From NCBI GenBank assembly GCA_964460855.1, contig CAYWQH010000002.1, positions 71,506 through 135,505 on the forward strand: a DNA stretch of 64,000 nt, written 5' to 3'. The position numbers were made by a program, and so were the translations under genes. The stretch is from an uncultured Candidatus Saccharibacteria bacterium (lineage in GTDB: Bacteria > Patescibacteriota > Saccharimonadia > Saccharimonadales > UBA10212). The notes beneath the pieces are model-generated. The model was not told where the DNA came from, did no database searches, and was given only the letters and a program-made list of their open reading frames with translations. The stretch's first letter is position 1, and each line of letters starts with the position of its first letter. Shown here piece after piece: positions 8,071-53,409 of the stretch.

Positions 8071-8961
8071 ATGGCTCAACAAACGCTGAGTATCGAAGAG
8101 CTGGAAAAAAAAGCTTACGATATCCGGATAGACATTATAAAAATGCTGGAAACAGCCGGCAGCGGGCACAGCGCCGGCCCGCTGGATTTAGCTGATATTT
8201 TTACGGCTCTTTATTTTGATATTTTGCGCCACAACCCCAACAAACCTGATTGGGACGACCGCGACCTGCTGGTGTTAAGCAATGGCCACTGCGCGCCGGT
8301 TTTATATACCACTTTGGCCCATGCAGGTTATTTTGACCGGTCTGAGCTTTCGACCTTACGTAAATTTGGCTCGCGCCTGCAAGGCCATCCCGAACGCGAA
8401 CGCTTGCCGGGGCTGGAAACCACCAGCGGCCCCCTGGGCGAAGGCCTCGGTCAGGCTGCCGGTATGGCGTTGGCTATGAAAATAAATAAACAAACTCATC
8501 GCTGGGTGTATTGCATTACCGGCGACGGCGAACTGGACGAAGGCAATATCTGGGAATCGGCCATGCTGATTAGCAAATACAAGCTTAATAACTTGATAGT
8601 TTTTGTAGACCGTAACAATATCCAAATAGATGGTACTACAGAGCATGTTATGCCGCTGGAAGATTTACGGGCCAAATGGGAAAGCTTTGGCTGGCATGTT
8701 ATAGAAATTGACGGCCATAACATGGAAGCGATAATAGACGCCTCGGCCATGGCCCGGGCAATTGTAGAAAAACCGGTGGCCATAATCGCCCATACCATCC
8801 CGGGCAAGGGCGTCGATTTTATGGAATACGATTACCACTGGCACGGCATTCCTGTGGGTTCGGCCGACGTGGCCGGCGCGCCGCCTAAAAACGAACAGGC
8901 TAAAGTGGCGCTAAAAGAATTGCGAAGCTTAAAAGGTAAGATTACCGGGGACCACGAATAG
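8071..8961 (+). CDS. transketolase, N-terminal subunit (split form)
   Basis: 296 aa with the thiamine-diphosphate binding region (GSGHSAGPLDLADIFTALYF, GDGELDEGNIWE). Confidence 0.9.
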   Translation: MAQQTLSIEELEKKAYDIRIDIIKMLETAGSGHSAGPLDLADIFTALYFDILRHNPNKPDWDDRDLLVLSNGHCAPVLYTTLAHAGYFDRSELSTLRKFGSRLQGHPERERLPGLETTSGPLGEGLGQAAGMALAMKINKQTHRWVYCITGDGELDEGNIWESAMLISKYKLNNLIVFVDRNNIQIDGTTEHVMPLEDLRAKWESFGWHVIEIDGHNMEAIIDASAMARAIVEKPVAIIAHTIPGKGVDFMEYDYHWHGIPVGSADVAGAPPKNEQAKVALKELRSLKGKITGDHE

Positions 8962-22960: not shown

Positions 22961-25900
22961 ATGTCAGCAAAAACAGACAATTCACCTCTGTTAGCAGGTG
23001 ACTTTGTGCACTTGCACAACCATACCCAATACAGCCTGCTGGACGGCCTGACTAAGGTGCCGGAACTTATTGATTATGTTAAGCAGGCCGGTATGGATGC
23101 TGTAGCTATTACCGACCACGGAACCATGAGCGGCGTCGTGGAATTTTATAAAACGGCTAAAGCCGAAGGTATAAAACCAGTTATCGGCATAGAAGCTTAT
23201 ATAGCCCCGCGCAGCCACCACGACCGCGACCCCAACAAAGATAAAAATTACTTCCACCTAACCATGCTGGCCATGAACCAGACAGGCTACTTGAATTTGA
23301 TGCGCTTGTCTACGTTAGCTAACTTGGAAGGCTTTTATTACAAGCCGCGCATTGACCACGAATTAATTGAAAAGTACAACGAAGGCATCATCGTTTTGTC
23401 GGGCTGTATCGGCGGCGAAGTAGCAGACGCATTGCGCCAAAACCAATACGACAAGGCTAAGGCAACAGCCAGTTGGTATAAGCAAGTTTTTGGCGACCGT
23501 TACTATATCGAGCTGCAAGACCATGGCCACCCCGACCATCCCAGCAGCTGGATCGAACAAAACCGGGTGAATGACCAGTTATTAAAACTGTCAACAGATT
23601 TAAAGATTCCGGCGGTTGTTACATGCGATGCACATTACTTAAAACTGGAGGACCAAGAAGCGCATGAAGTGCTGTTGTGTGTCCAAACCGGCGCCTATTT
23701 AAGCGACGAAAACCGCATGAGCTTAAAACAATTCCACTTAAATGTCGCCGACCCTAAAGAAGTAATAAAACGCTGGGGCAATAGCCATCCGGAACTAATC
23801 CGCACCAGCAAAAAAATTGCCGGGCGCTGCAATGTAGAACTGGAGCTTGGGGGCATATTAATCCCGAAGTTTCCGCTGCCTAAAGGCGAAACCGAACAGC
23901 ACTTTTTAACTCTACAAGTGTGGCAGGGCTTGGCCTGGCGTTACGGCGGCGTAAGCCGCAACGACGCTTTAAAAATGGGTATCGAAGCCAGCCGTAAAAA
24001 GCTCAGCCCGGAAGTTATAACCCGTGCCGAGTTCGAGCTAAAGACCATTAACAGCATGGGTTTTGACAGTTATATGCTTATTGTCGCCGATTTTATAAAT
24101 TGGGGCAAAGACCGCGGCATAGTTTTTGGGCCGGGGCGGGGTAGTGCCGCCGGATCTATCGTGGCCTACGCCTTGCGCATTACCGAGTTGGATCCTATCG
24201 CCTATGATTTGCTTTTTGAAAGATTTTTAAACCCCGACCGCATCGCCATGCCCGATATCGATATTGATATCCAGGACTCCCGCCGCGACGAAGTAATACA
24301 GTATTGCATCGAAAAATACGGCAAAGAGCAAGTTGCTAATATTGTAACTTTCGGCCGGATGGCCGCCCGCAACGCCGTGCGCGACGTAGCTAGGGTGCTG
24401 CAAGTGCCTTATGCCGAAGCCGACCGCATTGCCAAGCTCATTCCGCCGCCCATCCAGGGCCGCCACATTCCATTAAGAAAGTCTCTGGAAACCGATAACG
24501 AACTCAAAAAAGAAGAGGCCACTAACCAGCAGGCCGCCCGTGTTTTTGAGCTGGCCTCAAGGCTGGAAATGACCATCCGCAGCCACGGCGTGCATGCCGC
24601 CGGCGTAGTAATAACCCCTGACGAAATCGTAAAGTATACGCCGCTGGAACTGGCCCAAAAAGGCGTTATAGCCACCCAATACTCGATGTTTCCGATTGAG
24701 GAGCTGGGCCTGCTTAAAATGGACTTTTTAGGCCTGTCCAACTTAACAATCATTAAAAATGCCCTGCGGATTATTAAAAAAGTCGAAGGTAAAGATATTG
24801 ATATAACTGAGATACCCCTGGACGATAAAAAAACTTTCGAGCTACTGCAGCGCGGCGAAACCACGGGCGTGTTTCAGTTGGAATCGGCTGGAATGCGCCG
24901 TTATTTAAAGCAGCTCAAGCCGACGGTGTTTGATGACGTAATCGCCATGGTGGCCCTATACCGGCCGGGGCCGATGCAGTGGATAGAAGAATTTATCGCC
25001 CGAAAAAACGGCGAGCGGGCCATTAATTTTCTTCACCCGGCTATGGAGCCGGCCGTCCAAAATACTTACGGGCTGATAGTTTACCAGGAACAGGTCATGC
25101 AGATCAGCAAAGAAATGTGCGGCTTTACCGGCGGCCAAGCCGATACCCTACGCAAAGCTATCGGCAAAAAACTGCCGGAAGTGATGGCTAAATTAAAAAG
25201 TGAGTTTATTGAAGGCGCGGTCAATACCGTAAGTGCCGAGCGCCCCCTAATGGACCAGCTTTGGAAGCAGCTCGAAGACTTCGCAGCTTATTGTTTTAAC
25301 AAAAGCCATGCCGCTTGTTACGGGCTGATTGCCTACCAAACGGCCTATTTAAAAGCCCACTATCCAGCTGCGTTTATGGCTGCCGTTATGACCAGTGATT
25401 TTGACAATACCGACCGACTGGCCATCGAAATTGCCGAGTGCAAGCATATGGGCATGGAAGTTTTACCGCCTGACGTTAACGAATCGTTCCACGAGTTCGC
25501 AGTTGTACCGGGCGAAAACCAAATCCGTTTCGGCCTGGACGCCATCAAAAACGTTGGCCACGGAGCAGCCGAAGAAGTAATCAGGGCCCGCGACAGTTTG
25601 GAAGGCTCATTCGAGTCGATCGAGCAGTTTTTAACCCACGTTAATTGCCACATCGTTAACCGCAAAGCCTTGGAAAGCCTGGTAAAAAGCGGCGCGCTAG
25701 ACCGCTTTAAGCCCCGCGAAACTTTAATGGACAACCTTGACGTTATGATCCAGTTCGCCAACCGTATGCAAAAAGAAGTGGCCAGCGGCCAAGTCGATTT
25801 ATTCGGTAATTCTACGGAAGCATTGCCCGAAATGGCGCCGCAAATATATTGGGAAAACACCGGCCATGAATATTCATCGCGCGAGATCCTAACCTGGGAA

Positions 25901-34092: not shown

Positions 34093-35307
34093 ATGGAGTT
34101 AGACTTTAAACAACTGGCGACAGCCATAAAGGCCATTGCCGAAGAAAAAAACTTACCCGAAGACCAAGTACAGTCAATCGTTGAACAAGCTTTGGCTGCC
34201 GCTTACCGCCGCGATTACGGCGAGCGCGAACAAGAAGTGCGGGTAACTATGAATTTAAATACCGGCGACGTAACGGCGTTCGTCAGTAAAGAAGTCGTTA
34301 AAGACGCCAAAGACGTTGAAGACGATAAAGTGCAACTCACCTTAAATGAAGCCCAAGTACGCCAAAAGAACGCCAAAGTCGGCGACATTATCGAAACTGT
34401 CGAGCCGGTTAAAGATTTTGGACGGGTGGCTGCCCAAACCGCCAAGCAGGTTATATTGCAGCGGCTGCGCGAAGCCGAGCGCGAAATCGTATTAAACGAA
34501 TACGAAGATAAAATTGGCACTATTGTTAATGGAGTTATCCAGCGTGTCGAAGGCCGGCTGGCCCGCGTCGAACTGGGTAAAGCCCAGGGAATTATGCCCC
34601 AGAGCGAGCAAATTCAGGGCGAGCGCTATTATCCCGGCCAGCGTCTAAAGCTGTTTTTGAAAGACGTCGAAAAAGGTTTCCGAGGCCCGCAGCTAATTGT
34701 CAGCCGGGCCTGCAAAGAATTTATCGAACAGCTGTTTAGGGCCGAAGTACCCGAAATGGAAAACGGCGCCGTAGAAATAAAAGGCATTGCCCGCGAAGCT
34801 GGAGTGCGCAGTAAAATCGCCGTTAGCAGCAATGTCCACGGCGTAGACCCGGTCGGTACCTTCGTAGGCGGCCACGGCACCCGTATTAATGCCGTCCGCG
34901 ACGAAATTGGCAACCAGGAAATGATAGATATTGTAATCTTCAGCGATAATACCCAGGAATATATCGGCAACGCCATGAAGCCGGCCAATGTCGTTAAAGT
35001 AGAACTCGACGAAGCCAATAACAAAGCGAGGGTTGTAGTAGCCGAAGACCAGTTAAGTATCGCTATCGGCAAAAGCGGCCAAAATGTGCGTTTAGCCAGC
35101 AAGCTTACTGGTTTTGAACTCGATATCGAAGCCGAAAAAGCCGGCGAACCCGCCGATAAGCCCACTGCCGAAAAAGCCGAGGAAAAGCCTAAAGTTGAAG
35201 TTGCCGGCAAGCCAGTTGTCCAGAAGCTGAAGAAAAAGAGCGAGCTGGAAAGTTCGCTGCTTGATGCCATTGCCGAACACGGCACAGACACCGAAAAAAA
35301 TAAATAA
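34093..35307 (+). CDS. nusA: transcription termination/antitermination factor NusA
   Basis: 404 aa. GGAG lies 8 nt upstream. It has an N-terminal domain, an S1 domain, two KH domains (AIGKSGQNVRLASKLTG) and an acidic/lysine-rich tail. Confidence 0.92.
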   Translation: MELDFKQLATAIKAIAEEKNLPEDQVQSIVEQALAAAYRRDYGEREQEVRVTMNLNTGDVTAFVSKEVVKDAKDVEDDKVQLTLNEAQVRQKNAKVGDIIETVEPVKDFGRVAAQTAKQVILQRLREAEREIVLNEYEDKIGTIVNGVIQRVEGRLARVELGKAQGIMPQSEQIQGERYYPGQRLKLFLKDVEKGFRGPQLIVSRACKEFIEQLFRAEVPEMENGAVEIKGIAREAGVRSKIAVSSNVHGVDPVGTFVGGHGTRINAVRDEIGNQEMIDIVIFSDNTQEYIGNAMKPANVVKVELDEANNKARVVVAEDQLSIAIGKSGQNVRLASKLTGFELDIEAEKAGEPADKPTAEKAEEKPKVEVAGKPVVQKLKKKSELESSLLDAIAEHGTDTEKNK

Positions 35308-35321
35308 GTAAAAACTGATAG

Positions 35322-35348
35322 TTGGCACTCGTTGCATGTGAGTGCCAG
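35322..35348. promoter_or_regulatory. CIRCE-like inverted repeat upstream of clpC
   Basis: The sequence is TTGGCACTC-gttgcatgt-GAGTGCCAG. The 8-bp arms are perfect with a 9-nt spacer. The canonical CIRCE is TTAGCACTC-N9-GAGTGCTAA. Confidence 0.65.
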
Positions 35349-35361
35349 AACATGCTATAGT
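35332..35361 (+). promoter_or_regulatory. putative clpC promoter (TTGCAT-18-TATAGT, TG-extended -10)
   Basis: The -35 hexamer lies inside the spacer of the inverted repeat. The -10 context is aTGcTATAGT at 35353-35361, about 70 nt upstream of the start codon. Confidence 0.5.
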
Positions 35362-35429
35362 GGATTTACGGGCTTCTACCAAAAAACCCACAGATAAAAC
35401 GGCTCGGGAAAGGCAAAATTAGAACACAT

Positions 35430-37916
35430 ATGATGCCCAATTCACCAGATTTCCAAGAATTTTTAAACCATTTAACAGATAATGCGTTGCATAGCTTAAA
35501 GCACGCCGACCAAATTGCCAGGGCCGGCGGCAGCGCCTATGTAGGCACCGAGCATTTATTACTCGGACTGCTGGCCCAAGACGGCTCAATTGGCGCCAAA
35601 ATATTAGAAGGTGCCGGCGTAACATTAGACCGCGCCCGCTTAGCACTTAACCTGACCCCAAAGACCTTAGTTATCAACATCGGCGCTAAGGGTTTAAGTG
35701 AAACTGCCAAACTAACTTTAAAAATGGCTTGGGAGATCGCCCAGGAGTTTAACCAGGATATGTGCGGTACAGAGCACATCCTATATAGCATTTTGACCCA
35801 AAAGAACGCCCGCGCAACGGTTTTGCTGCGCGACATGAACATTGATGTCGACCAACTCACAAACGAGCTGGAACAGTTCTTAAACCGCCAACAATTCGAA
35901 GACAATCCCGACGGCGACCCCACCAAGTCACTTCGCCGCAAATCCAAAAGCGGCAAAAAAACGGCCGTAGAATTCTTCGGCACCGATTTAACCGATTTGG
36001 CCAAGCAGGGGAAGCTAGACCCGGTAGTGGGCCGCGAAGCCCAGATTAAAAGGGTGGTTACCATATTAAACCGCCGCACTAAAAACAACCCGGTATTAAT
36101 TGGCGAACCCGGCGTCGGTAAAACAGCTATCGTAGAAGGCCTGGCCCAGCGCATCATTAACGAAGAAGTGCCGGACAGCCTGCTTGATAAGCGGATTATC
36201 ATGCTCGACCTGGCCGGCATGATCGCCGGTACCAAATACCGCGGCGAGTTCGAAGACCGTCTTAAAAAAGTTATGAGCGAGTTGGAAGGCGACAAGAGCA
36301 CAATTGTCTTTATAGACGAGCTGCATTTAATTGTTGGAGCCGGCGCAGCCGAAGGCTCGATGGACGCCGGCAATATGCTCAAGCCAGCCTTAGCCCGCGG
36401 CAAGATCCAGTTAATCGGCGCCACAACTACCGACGAATATACCAAATATATCGAAAAAGACGCCGCCCTGGAACGCCGTTTCCAACCGGTTCAGGTCCCT
36501 GAAACTACCGTTCCCGAAACAGTTTCTATACTAAAAGGCCTGCGCAAGTATTACGAGGAGTTCCACGGCGTAGACATTAGCGACGAAGTAATACAAGACA
36601 CTTCATACTTCGCCAAGCGCTACATTAATGACCGCTACATGCCCGACAAGGCAATTGATTTGCTGGACGAAACCGCTGCCCACCTGCGGGTCGACAAAGG
36701 CAAAACGCCGCCGGAAGTCCGCAAACTCCAGAAAGAACTTAAATTAATTAATACCCGCATCGAAGATGCCGTCGATAACGAAGACTACGAACGGGCCGCC
36801 CGCGAAAAGCAGCGCGCCAGCCAGATTAACGACCAACTGACTAAATTGCAAGCTAGCTATAAAAATGAGCAAAAACTCACCATGACCAGCGAGGATGTCG
36901 CCGAAACTGTCGCCCGGACCACCGGCGTGCCGGTAACCCGCGTCATCCGCAGCGAGGCCAAATATTTGGTTAACCTCGAAAAGAACTTAGAAAAGCATGT
37001 GATAGGCCAGCGCGAAGCCGTAGAAACCGTGGCCAAAGCTGTCCGCCGTTCGCGCTCCGGCATTGCCAGTGAGAAACGGCCGATCGGCTCTTTTATATTC
37101 CTTGGCCCAACCGGCGTCGGTAAAACCGAACTGGCTAGGGTGCTAGCTAAAGAATTCTTTGGCAGCGAAGAAGCGCTGGTTAAAATTGATATGAGCGAAT
37201 TCGGCGAGCACCATAATGTTAGCCGGTTAGTCGGCGCGCCCGCCGGTTACGTCGGTTACGACGACGGCGGCCAGCTTACTGACAAAATCCGCCGCCAGCC
37301 ATATAGCGTCGTGTTGTTTGACGAAATCGAAAAAGCCCACCCCGACGTATTCAACATGCTGCTGCAGCTGCTGGAAGACGGCAAAATAACCGACGCCAAA
37401 GGCCGGCCCATCGACTTCACCAATACGATAGTGATAATGACCAGCAATTTAGGCGCCGAAAAGCTGCAAAAAGAAGCCAGCTTTGGTTTCAGCGCGGTTA
37501 AGGCGTCTGATTTTGAAAACCTTGATGAGCTGCACGAAGCCAATAAAAACAAAGTCTTAGACGAGCTTAAGCGCATGATGCGCCCGGAAATGCTCAACCG
37601 CATAGATAAGATAGTAGTGTTCCGTGCCCTGACTAAAAAAGACGTTCTAAAAATCCTTGACTTGCAGATCGCCGATTTGCGCGGCCGTCTAGTTAAACGG
37701 GGTGTCGGCCTAAGCATTACGCCTTCCGCTAAAAATTTCCTGGTTGATAAAGGATACGATGCTAAAAACGGTGCCCGTCCAATGCGCCGCTTGCTGCAAG
37801 ATACCTTGGAAGACCACATTGCCAGCGGCTTGATTGAAGAATCTTATGAGCGCGGGGATATGGTAAGCGTTACGACTAAAAATAACGAGCTCAATTACGT
37901 TAAATCGGCCGAATAA
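35430..37916 (+). CDS. clpC: ATP-dependent Clp protease ATP-binding subunit ClpC (class I AAA+)
   Basis: 828 aa with duplicated Clp_N repeats, two AAA+ modules (GEPGVGKT, GPTGVGKT) and a middle UVR-like segment (EDYERAAREKQRA). Confidence 0.9.
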   Translation: MMPNSPDFQEFLNHLTDNALHSLKHADQIARAGGSAYVGTEHLLLGLLAQDGSIGAKILEGAGVTLDRARLALNLTPKTLVINIGAKGLSETAKLTLKMAWEIAQEFNQDMCGTEHILYSILTQKNARATVLLRDMNIDVDQLTNELEQFLNRQQFEDNPDGDPTKSLRRKSKSGKKTAVEFFGTDLTDLAKQGKLDPVVGREAQIKRVVTILNRRTKNNPVLIGEPGVGKTAIVEGLAQRIINEEVPDSLLDKRIIMLDLAGMIAGTKYRGEFEDRLKKVMSELEGDKSTIVFIDELHLIVGAGAAEGSMDAGNMLKPALARGKIQLIGATTTDEYTKYIEKDAALERRFQPVQVPETTVPETVSILKGLRKYYEEFHGVDISDEVIQDTSYFAKRYINDRYMPDKAIDLLDETAAHLRVDKGKTPPEVRKLQKELKLINTRIEDAVDNEDYERAAREKQRASQINDQLTKLQASYKNEQKLTMTSEDVAETVARTTGVPVTRVIRSEAKYLVNLEKNLEKHVIGQREAVETVAKAVRRSRSGIASEKRPIGSFIFLGPTGVGKTELARVLAKEFFGSEEALVKIDMSEFGEHHNVSRLVGAPAGYVGYDDGGQLTDKIRRQPYSVVLFDEIEKAHPDVFNMLLQLLEDGKITDAKGRPIDFTNTIVIMTSNLGAEKLQKEASFGFSAVKASDFENLDELHEANKNKVLDELKRMMRPEMLNRIDKIVVFRALTKKDVLKILDLQIADLRGRLVKRGVGLSITPSAKNFLVDKGYDAKNGARPMRRLLQDTLEDHIASGLIEESYERGDMVSVTTKNNELNYVKSAE

Positions 37917-37956: not shown

Positions 37957-38931
37957 ATGAATGTCGCCAAGCGGCTGCTTAAAATCGGCTTGGTTTCTTG
38001 CCTAGCGGTTATACCGTTAGTTTTGCTTTGGCAATACCAAGCCATTGAAGATTGGTGGAATTTAAGAAATTACGTCCCGCCGCCAGCTATCGCCTCATTG
38101 GCAACAGCCGATACGATGAATGACAAAGGCCGGCGGTTGTTCTACGTTAATAAGCCCCAACTCGATGATAAACAGGTATTTAATAATGACTGTACCGACA
38201 GCGAACAAACCATCGTACTTGGCTGCTACAAGTCAAACTCCGGAATATACATACTGACAGTCACGGAGCCGCGCCTAAAAGGCGTCGAAGAAGTGACCGC
38301 CGCCCACGAAATGCTGCACGCCGCTTATGACCGGCTAAGCGCTGGCGAGCGCAAACATATCGATGACCTGACTAACCAGGTTTACTCCAATATAAAAGAT
38401 GACCGTTTAAGGGCCACGGTAGAACAATACCGCCAAAAAGACCCGTCGGTTGTGCCAAACGAACTACACTCTATTTTGGGTACCGAAGTAAAAGATTTGC
38501 CGCCGGAGCTGGAAGCTTATTACAGCCGGTATTTCTCCAGCCGCCAGGCAATCGTAGCTATGAGCGAGCAATACGAGCAGGAGTTTACCAGCCGCAAAAA
38601 CCAGATCAACCAATTCGACTCTAAATTAGCGACCTTAAAGAAACAGATAGATAGTTACCAGCAGTCGCTGGCAGCCCAAAACCAGGCCTTAAACGCCCAG
38701 CGCGGCCATTTGGACGGTTTGCAGAGTTCAAACACCCCGCCGGCCGATTACAACGCCCAGGTGGCCAAATTCAATAGCTCGGTAGTCAGTTATAACGCCC
38801 AGGTGGTGCAGCTGCGCGATTTAATCAAGCAATATAACGACTTAGTCTCCCAGCGCAACGCGGTGGCCAGCGAACAACGGTCGCTGGTGCAGGCTATAGA
38901 TTCACGCGTCTCAACCCAAGCCACCCAATAA
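37957..38931 (+). CDS. hypothetical membrane-anchored protein with HExxH motif and Q-rich coiled-coil tail
   Basis: 324 aa with an N-terminal TM, VTAAHEMLHAAY (HExxH) and a C-terminal Q/N/S-rich heptad-like region. TGgTATAAT ends 7 nt before the ATG. Confidence 0.55.
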   Translation: MNVAKRLLKIGLVSCLAVIPLVLLWQYQAIEDWWNLRNYVPPPAIASLATADTMNDKGRRLFYVNKPQLDDKQVFNNDCTDSEQTIVLGCYKSNSGIYILTVTEPRLKGVEEVTAAHEMLHAAYDRLSAGERKHIDDLTNQVYSNIKDDRLRATVEQYRQKDPSVVPNELHSILGTEVKDLPPELEAYYSRYFSSRQAIVAMSEQYEQEFTSRKNQINQFDSKLATLKKQIDSYQQSLAAQNQALNAQRGHLDGLQSSNTPPADYNAQVAKFNSSVVSYNAQVVQLRDLIKQYNDLVSQRNAVASEQRSLVQAIDSRVSTQATQ

Positions 38932-50439: not shown

Positions 50440-51720
50440 ATGAAAGTGAGCCGAGAAGCTAAAAGCGATACTTTAGTATTGCTTAATATCCAAGCGGAGC
50501 AATCTGAACTGGACGAAATTAAACAGCATGTACTGCGCCGTTTGGCGCCCGGCATTAAAGCGCCGGGCTTCCGGCCGGGCAAAGCGCCGCTGAATATAGT
50601 CGAAAAACAAGTTGGCCCCCAGGTGATGCAGCAGGAATTCCTGGATGACGCGGCTAATGCGCTGTACAACCGGGCTATTAAAAACGAACGGCTTCGGCCG
50701 GTTGGCAACCCGACAGTCAATTTAAAAAAATTCGTACCGTTTACGGCTTTAGAAATGGAAGTCGAAGTTGAGGCTATCGGTAAAATCGACTTGCCGAATT
50801 ATAAAGACCTGAAAGTAGAAAAGCCGGTTGCTCAAGTTACTGCCGCCGATGTAAACGACGTAATCGAAAACCTGCGCGTCCGGATGGCCGAAAAACAAGA
50901 AGTGGAGCGGGCCGCAAAAAAGGGCGACGAAGTATGGATCGATTTTGAAGGTAAAGACAGCCAGGGCAAACCGGTAAGCGGCGCTTCCGGTAAAGACTAT
51001 CCGCTGCTGCTGGGCAGCAATACATTTATACCCGGGTTTGAAGACAATTTAATAGGCGTTAAAAAAGGCGACAAAAAAACATTTAAACTCAATTTCCCTA
51101 AAGACTATGGGTTGCAGGCATTGCAGGGCAAAGAAGTAACTTTTGAGGCCGAAGCCGTGAAAGTGCAAGAGCTTAATAAACCGGCCGCCGATGATGCCCT
51201 TGCCGCCAAAGCCGGACCTTTTAAAACACTGGCCGAGCTTAAAAAAGACGTCAAACAACAGCTTACGAGCGAGCGGCAGAACCAAGCCAAGCAGGCTTAC
51301 GATAACGCCCTGGTAAAAGCCCTGGCCGACAATACCGTAGTAACCATCCCGGACAGTTTGGTCGAAGACCAGGTTTTGCATATGGAAGAAGAAGAAAAGC
51401 GCAACCTGGTTTACCGCGGCCAGACCTGGCAGGAGCACCTGGATATGGAAGGCATCAACGAAGAGGAACACCGGGCCCGCCATAAACCGGACGCCGTATT
51501 GCGGGTCAAAGCCGGCCTGGCATTAAGCGAAATTGCCGAGCTTGAGAAAATATTCGTAACGCCCGAAGAACTGGAAATCCGCCTTGACGCGTTAAGGCAG
51601 CAATATAGCGACCCGCAAATGCAAGCCGAGCTTGCCAAGCCCGAAAACCAGCGGGAAATTACGAATCAGCTTATGACTGAGAAAACAATTAATCGGCTAG
51701 TCGAGCTCAACGCGCATTAA
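50440..51720 (+). CDS. tig: trigger factor
   Basis: 426 aa with a ribosome-binding N-domain (GFRPGKAP), an FKBP-type PPIase middle domain and a C-terminal helical arm domain. Confidence 0.9.
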   Translation: MKVSREAKSDTLVLLNIQAEQSELDEIKQHVLRRLAPGIKAPGFRPGKAPLNIVEKQVGPQVMQQEFLDDAANALYNRAIKNERLRPVGNPTVNLKKFVPFTALEMEVEVEAIGKIDLPNYKDLKVEKPVAQVTAADVNDVIENLRVRMAEKQEVERAAKKGDEVWIDFEGKDSQGKPVSGASGKDYPLLLGSNTFIPGFEDNLIGVKKGDKKTFKLNFPKDYGLQALQGKEVTFEAEAVKVQELNKPAADDALAAKAGPFKTLAELKKDVKQQLTSERQNQAKQAYDNALVKALADNTVVTIPDSLVEDQVLHMEEEEKRNLVYRGQTWQEHLDMEGINEEEHRARHKPDAVLRVKAGLALSEIAELEKIFVTPEELEIRLDALRQQYSDPQMQAELAKPENQREITNQLMTEKTINRLVELNAH

Positions 51721-52089
51721 TGGCTCCGCGTCAGGCTCAACAGTAGATTGGGGATTAGGTTCTGCTCCGGTCTCAGGCGACGACGGATAAGCAATCTCGT
51801 GAGTTCTCCAGACTGCGCCAAGCCCATGGCCTAAACCTTTTACTGCCAATCCGCCGCTAACCAGTGCTGTTCCGATATATATCCGTGGATCAGCGGGCAC
51901 AGTTTCAATCATCAAAGTAGTACTAGCAAATAAAGAACCAGCAGCTGCTAATGCGCGATAACTTTTGCGGAAAGAATTTAGCGCATTCTCGTTTAGTTCA
52001 ATATCAGGATAATGATTGCGGGCATGTCTAAAAGCTTCTCTTTCGGCAAACCTGTCGATCTTCCCGCTAATCCTGCCAATTGGTTGCAT
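51697..52089 (-). CDS. hypothetical small membrane protein
   Basis: The start is taken at ATG 52089, preceded on the minus strand by TTGATA-17-TATTTT. The GTG at 52143 would start inside the clpP operator. Two hydrophobic segments are present. Its 3' end overlaps tig convergently by 24 nt. Confidence 0.45.
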   Translation of the reverse strand: MQPIGRISGKIDRFAEREAFRHARNHYPDIELNENALNSFRKSYRALAAAGSLFASTTLMIETVPADPRIYIGTALVSGGLAVKGLGHGLGAVWRTHEIAYPSSPETGAEPNPQSTVEPDAEPLMRVELD

Positions 52090-52136
52090 AATTAGGCTAA
52101 AAATACCATAAAAGGTATATTTTATCAACCCCGTTG

Positions 52137-52163
52137 CTGGCACTCTTGACGTGCGAGTGCCAA
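52137..52163. promoter_or_regulatory. CIRCE-like inverted repeat upstream of clpP
   Basis: The sequence is CTGGCACTC-ttgacgtgc-GAGTGCCAA. It has the same 8-bp arms and the same 9-nt spacer length as the clpC site. Confidence 0.65.
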
Positions 52164-52175
52164 TTAAAGTAAACT
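52146..52175 (+). promoter_or_regulatory. putative clpP promoter (TTGACG-18-TAAACT), -10 ends 6 nt before ATG
   Basis: The -35 hexamer occupies the first six spacer positions of the inverted repeat. The geometry matches the clpC promoter. Confidence 0.55.
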
Positions 52176-52181
52176 AGATGT

Positions 52182-52760
52182 ATGGTTATACCAACGGTTA
52201 TAGAACAAGAAGGCCGCTTCGAAAGGGTGTATGACATATACAGCCGTTTGCTGCGCGACCGCATCATCTTTTTAGGCACGGACGTAAACGAACAAACGGC
52301 TAATGCCATCGTTGCCCAGATGTTATTCCTCGAAAACCAGGACCCGGACAAAGATATAGTTTTTTACATTAACAGCCCTGGCGGCAGCGTATATGACGGC
52401 ATGGGCATTTACGACACAATGCAATTTATTAAATGCGATATCCAAACGGTTGGCATTGGCTTACAGGCTAGCATGGGAGCCGTGCTTTTGAGCTCCGGCA
52501 CCAAGGGCAAACGGTTGCTGCTGCCTAACAGCAAAGTTATGATTCACCAGCCTAGCGGCGGCGCCCAAGGCAAAATCAGCGATTTAGAAATTACGCTTCG
52601 AGAATCACTGCGGGTAAAAGAAAAAATCAATCAAATCTTAGCCAAAAACACCGGCCAGACCATCAAGAAAATCGAAGTTGATGTCGACCGCGATTACTGG
52701 ATGGACGCCAAAGAAGCCAAAGCGTATGGTTTGATCGATAAAATCCTGGACAAACGCTAA
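52182..52760 (+). CDS. clpP: ATP-dependent Clp protease proteolytic subunit
   Basis: 192 aa with RIIFLG, the catalytic Ser in QASMGA, His in MIHQP and Asp in RD(Y)WM. Confidence 0.93.
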
Positions 52761-52779: not shown

Positions 52780-53409
52780 ATGAGTGAGAAACGTACGCGT
52801 CTACCGCTACACATCGAACGATTCGAAGGGCCCCAGCCAGAAAAAAAGACCTTGGAAATTGCCCGTCGGCTTAGCCACGTATTGGGCGTGAGTTGGAGCA
52901 ATTTATTGGAACGTGAGCTCAAGGCGCTAGAAAATGGAACGGTTCGCCGTGAGCTGTTTGATGAAACCAACGAAGAACTTGTCAGGGCCAGACAAATAAA
53001 TGTTATTGAATCGCTGGGCCATCGGGCCGTTTATTATTTTGCCTGGTTCAATCAACAGGATTGGGGAATGGCCAAAACCACACCGTCTTACCCAAATAAA
53101 GTGCTTAAGGTAGTTGGCGCGCCGGCTAATTGCTACTTTGGATCTCTTGATTCAATTATCGCCAATATGCAAGTTGGCAGCCAGCTGTTCCAGGCCGCTT
53201 CGGCACCTTTTAAAGACGGCAAGCTAGCGGTAACCGATGTATTTAATTATCCGGAAAGCAGCACTTACCAGGCAGCATTGCACGCCGGCTTCGAACCGGT
53301 ATTACCGCAACCCGCCGATCTTGTTTTTCGCATAGGTGAATACAAATTACCGCAAATCAGGATGTCCGCCGAAATCGGCCAAATACGCGCCAGTATTAAA
53401 AGATCGTAA
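52780..53409 (+). CDS. hypothetical protein
   Basis: 209 aa with ordinary composition and no motif I recognise. TGaTAATAT ends 6 nt before the ATG. Confidence 0.55.
   Translation: MSEKRTRLPLHIERFEGPQPEKKTLEIARRLSHVLGVSWSNLLERELKALENGTVRRELFDETNEELVRARQINVIESLGHRAVYYFAWFNQQDWGMAKTTPSYPNKVLKVVGAPANCYFGSLDSIIANMQVGSQLFQAASAPFKDGKLAVTDVFNYPESSTYQAALHAGFEPVLPQPADLVFRIGEYKLPQIRMSAEIGQIRASIKRS

Follow-up and report, generated by a model that had tools for sequence, protein, structure and literature searches.

HrcA, the repressor of chaperone genes, appears to govern the Clp protease in the small-genome Saccharibacteria lineage, because relatives of the genome in this study keep the HrcA operator CIRCE at their clpC and clpP promoters. 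In the window, by which is meant the whole 64,000-nt stretch of DNA that was analysed, clpC and clpP are each preceded by such a palindrome, and on the strength of sequence comparison both palindromes are very probably functional HrcA operators. The predicted HrcA regulon of the lineage would, in all likelihood, unite hrcA-grpE-dnaK-dnaJ, groES-groEL and hsp20 with clpC and clpP. What is new here is the lineage-wide membership of clpC and clpP in the HrcA regulon; the regulon itself is well known, and the extension is a modest one.

CIRCE at the clpC and clpP Promoters

The clpC-site palindrome, TGGCACTC-GTTGCATGT-GAGTGCCA, lies at positions 35323–35347, in the 122-nt spacer that separates nusA (34093–35307) from clpC (35430–37916, plus strand, 828 aa), both genes being identified through Pfam and NCBIfam. 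Its left arm (35323–35330) and right arm (35340–35347), neither of which is assigned to a strand, enclose a 9-nt spacer (35331–35339, plus strand) that contains the -35 hexamer TTGCAT (35332–35337). The clpP-site palindrome, TGGCACTC-TTGACGTGC-GAGTGCCA, lies at 52138–52162 in the spacer between tig (50440–51720, Pfam/NCBIfam) and clpP (52182–52760, plus strand, 192 aa), the latter matching PF00574 and scoring above the cutoff of NF001368. It is likewise made up of two unstranded arms (52138–52145 and 52155–52162) around a spacer (52146–52154, plus strand), in which the sequence and a promoter consensus scan place the -35 hexamer TTGACG (52146–52151). The two sites have the same arms and different spacers, each spacer is exactly 9 nt long, and eight of the nine positions per arm match CIRCE, TTAGCACTC-N9-GAGTGCTAA. 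The initial annotation of this DNA had described the arms, spacer, TTGCAT, 18-nt gap and extended -10 of the clpC site and had noted a second copy at clpP, and both descriptions were confirmed in the sequence.

Each CIRCE encloses the predicted -35 hexamer of a promoter of the sigma-70 type. At clpC (TTGCAT-18-TGcTATAGT), the extended -10 stands on the plus strand at 35353–35361, 18 nt past the -35 hexamer, with TGc at 35353–35355 and TATAGT at 35356–35361. At clpP (TTGACG-18-TAAACT), the consensus scan pairs TTGACG across an 18-nt gap with the -10 box TAAACT (52170–52175, plus strand). Both operators are intergenic, 82 nt (clpC) and 19 nt (clpP) upstream of the start codon, and the clpP mRNA is probably leaderless, as the clpP ATG (52182) begins only 7 nt past the predicted -10 box. 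In the ATPase encoded by clpC, two Clp_N repeats and two AAA+ modules are combined with a short UVR-like middle domain, and the second AAA+ module is followed by an FGF loop for docking to ClpP, an architecture by which the protein is classed as ClpC-type and not ClpB.

A search of the 64-kb window with up to three mismatches returned the two perfect sites and one three-mismatch match in dnaE, where shuffling of the window gives a chance expectation of 0.10 sites on average and none of 100 shuffles reached three. The dnaE palindrome (25419–25443, TGGCCATC-N9-GAGTGCAA, 2–3 mismatches) was dismissed, being in coding DNA and at chance level.

With its two 8–9 bp arms occupied by an HrcA dimer, each operator would hide the -35 hexamer from sigma factor and RNA polymerase, and repression of clpC and clpP would be expected as long as the cell is not stressed. 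Judging from other bacteria, derepression would follow once HrcA becomes inactive, either on heating or when unfolded proteins titrate GroEL. This model was developed in B. subtilis (Mogk et al., 1997, cited in PMC7737663).

Conservation of the Operator in Relatives

Orthologous clpC loci were gathered without reference to the operator, through a metagenome scan with ClpC residues 1–170 that gave 80 loci with 77–87% identity. The palindrome is present within 300 nt upstream of clpC at 76 of these loci, in 46 cases in the canonical form TAGCACTC/GAGTGCTA, in 23 as a hybrid and in seven in the G/C form, and at the four loci lacking it the contig reaches just 113–257 nt upstream. With zero mismatches and a range of 400 nt, TNGCACTC-N9-GAGTGCNA is found upstream of clpC at 75 of the 80 loci (68 distinct sequences), standing 17–228 nt ahead of the start codon. 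The A>G / T>C change seen in the window is not a trait specific to the lineage, and most relatives have the canonical A/T form at clpC (40 of the 68 distinct sites).

For clpP, six loci (five distinct) were gathered via ClpP homologues with 73–78% protein identity. All six have a perfect CIRCE at the equivalent place between tig and clpP, with no second site in the ~20 kb of each locus. Across all 86 clpC and clpP loci, which together cover 499 kb, exactly one site is found in each of 82 loci, every time at the clpC or clpP promoter, and zero sites are found elsewhere, with ~0.002 chance hits expected in 499 kb for 14 specified bases. The motif is therefore not one that recurs at similar frequency in coding DNA, a point on which the initial annotation had staked its reading, and conservation upstream of orthologous clpC, which it had also named as decisive, was found and extends to clpP. 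The closest ClpP relatives, with 71–78% identity, include proteins named Candidatus Saccharibacteria bacterium, and Saccharibacteria names are likewise attached to relatives of HrcA and ClpC. A ClpP identical to that of the window was found on three short Logan contigs only (SRR9179559/60/63), whereas the exact ClpC matched no record. The gene order common to relatives is PBP1A-tyrS-recG-rsmD-hisS-tig-clpP-rpoB-rpoC-rpsL-rpsG.

Compared column by column, the clpC upstream regions give the footprint AATTAGCACTCTTGAC.tgaGAGTGCTAA.Tg.tataaT, and since these columns are conserved while the flanks vary, the conserved features are the arms, the -35 and the -10. The left arm is near-invariant in the 68 distinct upstreams, with only A or G at position 2, and the right arm is marked by the same footprint. 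The spacer opens with the -35 hexamer (TTGAC or TTGCA) in 66 of the 68, and a TAnnnT box follows 5–8 nt past the right arm in 63, preceded by TGn in 46. At eight loci, six of them distinct (L155, L156, L172, L177, L204, L205, L206 and L221), clpC is probably leaderless, with its ATG 6–8 nt past the -10, which would pin the position of the promoter exactly here. This is the same position at which the clpC promoter of the window had been predicted in the initial annotation, and so lends support to that placement.

The clpC leaders of the other relatives run to roughly 30–215 nt from the predicted start site, with 43–228 nt between operator and ATG. In many relatives (L157, L160–L164, L170, L171, L181, L183, L185, L196, L198, L211 and L219), the clpC 5' UTR has a hairpin, AGCGA-N8-14-TCGCT, near the predicted transcription start site, followed by an AGAAGGG ribosome-binding site. 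It may serve to stabilise the 5' end of the transcript or to regulate as a stem-loop. The clpC 5' UTR of the window (35362–35429) has no obvious hairpin of the AGCGA type.

CIRCE in Other Phyla

The initial annotation had described the palindrome as CIRCE-like, with one A>G / T>C change per arm. The change itself is correct, but it is not a departure from CIRCE, as the G-variant is common in many phyla. A scan of 185,579 species genomes for perfect G-variant arms whose spacer opens with K-T-K gave at least 120 loci. Since this sample was chosen by the motif itself, it reveals what genes may bear the site but not the frequency with which they bear it. Among the matches listed, 81 of the 98 loci from outside the Saccharibacteria have the G-variant directly upstream of groES (42), hrcA (33), groEL (5) or dnaK (1), and the phyla and groups represented include Actinomycetes, Solirubrobacterales, Acidobacteriota, Gemmatimonadales, alpha-proteobacteria, Chloroflexota and Leuconostoc. 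The palindrome also adjoins groES on two IMG/VR contigs (L004 and L007), and the HrcA site listed for Desulfovibrio vulgaris groESL is cTgGCACTC-N9-GAGTGCcAA (PMC545781, Table 8). Given the D. vulgaris listing and the occurrence of the G-variant ahead of groES, hrcA, groEL and dnaK in so many phyla, this is ordinary CIRCE, and by the same comparison both palindromes in the window are classed as genuine CIRCE, not merely CIRCE-like.

Several single loci found in these scans are of interest in their own right. In a Candidatus Omnitrophota MAG (L109, 1218–1242), CIRCE stands 25 nt ahead of a Clp/Hsp100 ATPase with 46% identity to the ClpC of the window, and in an Eubacteriales MAG (L035, 3386–3410) it is upstream of a putative HtpG (Hsp90), judged by eye. 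A contig filed as viral (L021, IMGVR_UViG_3300007662_000020) has TGGCACTC-TTGCATTTT-GAGTGCCA at 8860–8884, then TATAAT and a leaderless dnaJ; as this promoter design is the same as that in the window, the stretch is probably bacterial DNA. It was dismissed as a relative of the window, since tblastx revealed no common genes, and offers an architectural parallel only. One 40-nt stretch, tctcattttcgtgtaTGGCACTCTCCTTTCAGGAGTGCCA, recurs in the IMG/VR contigs L013 (386–410 and 4859–4883), L020 (1172) and L030 (211), and is, by its sequence, a longer hairpin unrelated to CIRCE function, because the palindrome runs into the spacer.

HrcA and Its Predicted Targets in the Saccharibacteria

Among the at least 120 matches listed, 22 loci belong to the Saccharibacteria/Saccharimonadales. 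The gene behind the palindrome is hrcA in nine of these, hsp20 (Pfam HSP20) in seven, dnaK in three (plus a second site in L113), groES-groEL in one and clpC in one, the last being a Saccharibacteria MAG (L147) whose ClpC N-terminus is 88% identical to that of the window. In two more loci, L240 and L241, which were found by HrcA protein similarity alone, CIRCE is directly ahead of hrcA-grpE-dnaK-dnaJ. The initial annotation had pointed to the classical HrcA targets and to an hrcA gene as the places where its reading could be checked; in the lineage, CIRCE is present at hrcA, dnaK, groES-groEL and hsp20, and hrcA genes with the same operator ahead of them occur throughout. It had also proposed a Clp regulon built on this operator, of which the operator shared by clpC and clpP stands, whereas a separate regulon does not, and the arrangement is better described as an HrcA regulon that absorbed clpC and clpP. 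In the 64-kb window, hrcA, groEL and dnaK were sought and none was found, groES being absent as well; the candidate ORFs proved to encode, among others, a sugar kinase, UvrB and a PilB-type ATPase.

The HrcA of the Saccharibacteria, here called mini-HrcA, has a length of 232–245 aa (~235 aa). A protein search with it gave at least 8000 matches at E ≤ 1e-10, the best 120 of which are 81–100% identical to the query. Compared with canonical HrcA (338–357 aa), the proteins of the lineage have a single gap of ~105 residues, which follows the winged helix and the linker, and the missing residues may correspond roughly to the dimerising domain that is inserted in T. maritima HrcA. The winged-helix domain is strongly conserved in the lineage and aligns to that of T. 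maritima HrcA (PDB 1stz); in a profile search of the PDB, nothing beyond this domain aligned to 1stz. In Pfam, the second (C-terminal) half of PF01628 alone matches, and an AlphaFold model of mini-HrcA built from a 25-sequence alignment was poor (mean pLDDT 47). Because ~105 central residues are missing, the oligomeric state, GroEL dependence and thermosensing of mini-HrcA may differ from the textbook model.

Mini-HrcA genes are found beside CIRCE in the Saccharibacteria loci L037, L043, L063, L074, L095, L113 and L128, and mini-HrcA is further represented by L062 (Omnitrophota) and by the proteins P0121–P0240. A broader proposal, for and against which we see the balance as even, is that in Saccharibacteria, and possibly in other lineages with reduced genomes such as some Omnitrophota, mini-HrcA is the single master regulator of proteostasis, acting on DnaK/DnaJ/GrpE, GroES/EL, Hsp20, ClpC and ClpP, so that the class I and class III regulons of Firmicutes would be merged into one, with a stereotyped operator in which the -35 is nested in the CIRCE spacer and with stress sensing that is perhaps different (without the dimerisation insert or GroEL dependence).

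Alternative Explanations

As HrcA binding is here a prediction, and the HrcA of the lineage is atypically short, it might be supposed that a different, lineage-specific regulator sharing the CIRCE sequence binds the palindrome and that clpC and clpP are not under HrcA at all. This is unlikely, as within this lineage the identical motif is found ahead of hrcA and of the genes that HrcA classically controls, the DNA-binding domain of HrcA is highly conserved, and the clpC arms vary among relatives solely between known forms of the HrcA site, with A or G at one position. The regulators that usually control clp genes left no trace either, in agreement with the initial annotation, which had reported neither a CtsR heptad nor a ClgR site and is borne out at both clp promoters. 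No CtsR heptad repeat (RGTCADNNANRGTCADN, up to two mismatches) is found in the clpC or clpP upstream regions, matches of the CtsR type across the window being near chance (22 observed against 15.3 expected), ctsR-mcsA-mcsB is absent upstream of clpC, where the neighbour is nusA, and the ClgR core CGCYNANRGCG does not occur in 35250–35430 or 52050–52182.

Control of clpC and clpP by HrcA has also to be weighed against a role of the inverted repeat in RNA, as a hairpin, terminator or processing or stability element of the nusA and tig transcripts. Read-through RNA could indeed fold into a G+C-rich stem of 8 bp closed by a 9-nt loop, and in B. subtilis CIRCE is reported to influence mRNA stability when transcribed. 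Such a role is nonetheless highly improbable for the two copies in the window, neither of which is followed by a T-run; scans for an intrinsic terminator (a G+C-rich hairpin with a T-run) were blank at both palindromes, the DNA past the right arm not being T-rich, and an Rfam scan of the clpC region matched no family. The supposed loop contains a conserved -35, with a conserved -10 after it, which is the signature of a promoter at the level of DNA, and a hairpin would tolerate compensatory changes in its arms, yet the arm sequence is invariant. That the palindromes are chance occurrences or decaying relics with no regulatory role has next to no probability and is effectively refuted by their conservation: the window has two perfect sites where 0.1 would be expected, and the 82 perfect or near-perfect sites in the 86 related loci are at two promoters, with none elsewhere in 499 kb. 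HrcA operators thus remain the preferred reading of both sites.

Comparison With Known Heat Shock Regulons

The system predicted here resembles the class I CIRCE/HrcA system of B. subtilis dnaK and groE in its operator, TTAGCACTC-N9-GAGTGCTAA, which in the window takes the form T(T/C)GGCACTC-N9-GAGTGCCA(G/A), and in its targets, with hrcA-grpE-dnaK-dnaJ and groES-groEL also being predicted targets in the lineage. It differs in that the targets include clpC and clpP, genes that fall outside class I in model organisms, and in the length of HrcA, which is ~235 aa in the lineage and ~340 aa in class I systems. The position of the operator also differs, as CIRCE is downstream of the transcription start site in B. 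subtilis, whereas the operator of the lineage brackets the -35. The hrcA genes of the lineage encode a winged-helix domain and have their own CIRCE, from which autoregulation is predicted, and in both respects they are like those of class I systems (PMC3842655, PMC545781).

A closer parallel in terms of genome biology is found in the Mollicutes, which also have reduced genomes with HrcA/CIRCE on chaperones and ATP-dependent proteases, and in which CtsR has been lost. In Mycoplasma feriruminatoris, CIRCE is located upstream of the Pribnow box of lon (PMC12597100), and lon of M. pneumoniae is also under CIRCE (PMC7737663). The Mollicutes belong to a different phylum, however, their targets are Lon and ClpB rather than ClpC and ClpP, and their arm variant, TTAGCACTT/AAGTGCTAA, differs from the arms in the window. 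The lineage may add to the Mollicutes a second, independent case in which protein quality control was consolidated under HrcA as the genome was reduced.

The clp protease genes are controlled by CtsR (class III) in Firmicutes and by ClgR in Actinobacteria. The predicted output of the present system, stress-responsive transcription of clpC and clpP, is like that of the CtsR and ClgR regulons, whereas the regulator and operator are unrelated. In lactic acid bacteria, individual clp genes have entered the HrcA regulon or carry CIRCE, as with clpP of S. salivarius, which is regulated jointly with CtsR, and clpL of L. gasseri. Those cases are sporadic and at the level of species, whereas here both clpC and clpP are involved, in a class-level lineage and with no CtsR box. 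The title of Chastanet and Msadek (2003), as cited in PMC3842655 and PMC6305308, places S. salivarius clpP in a "dually regulated" class, and clpL of L. gasseri is attributed to HrcA (PMC3192767; title of Suokko, 2008, as cited in PMC7053576).

A full-text search of the literature returned no paper connecting HrcA with Saccharibacteria, Patescibacteria or the candidate phyla radiation (CPR). Most Saccharibacteria and other CPR bacteria are epibionts that have not been cultivated; very few transcription factors can be recognised in them, and regulation in these organisms is almost unexplored. An operator–regulator pair over chaperones and Clp would thus be one of the few regulons that can be confidently predicted in them. 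The CIRCE-nested promoter may also offer a ready stress-inducible design for genetic tools, as has been the case with CIRCE in Mycoplasma. The general understanding of HrcA and CIRCE is unchanged by these findings, which are tidy and would not surprise a specialist.

Neighbouring Open Reading Frames

The spacer between tig and clpP is unusually long (461 nt, 51721–52181) and contains an antisense ORF running from 52089 or 52143 down to 51697 (130–148 aa); on the minus strand, just left of the clpP CIRCE, there is a site resembling a promoter, TTGATA-17-TATTTT (52128–52100). A homologue of the antisense ORF was sought in the related loci and none was found, and it is a candidate gene at most. 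Directly after clpP is an ORF of 209 aa (52780–53409), which has no Pfam domain and may be co-transcribed with clpP; L235 has a 205-aa ORF in the corresponding place, other relatives being without one. Directly after clpC, between it and radA, there is a 324-aa ORF (37957–38931), also with no Pfam domain and with only weak, far sub-threshold NCBIfam matches to SMC-related and helix-rich models, which may be co-transcribed with clpC.
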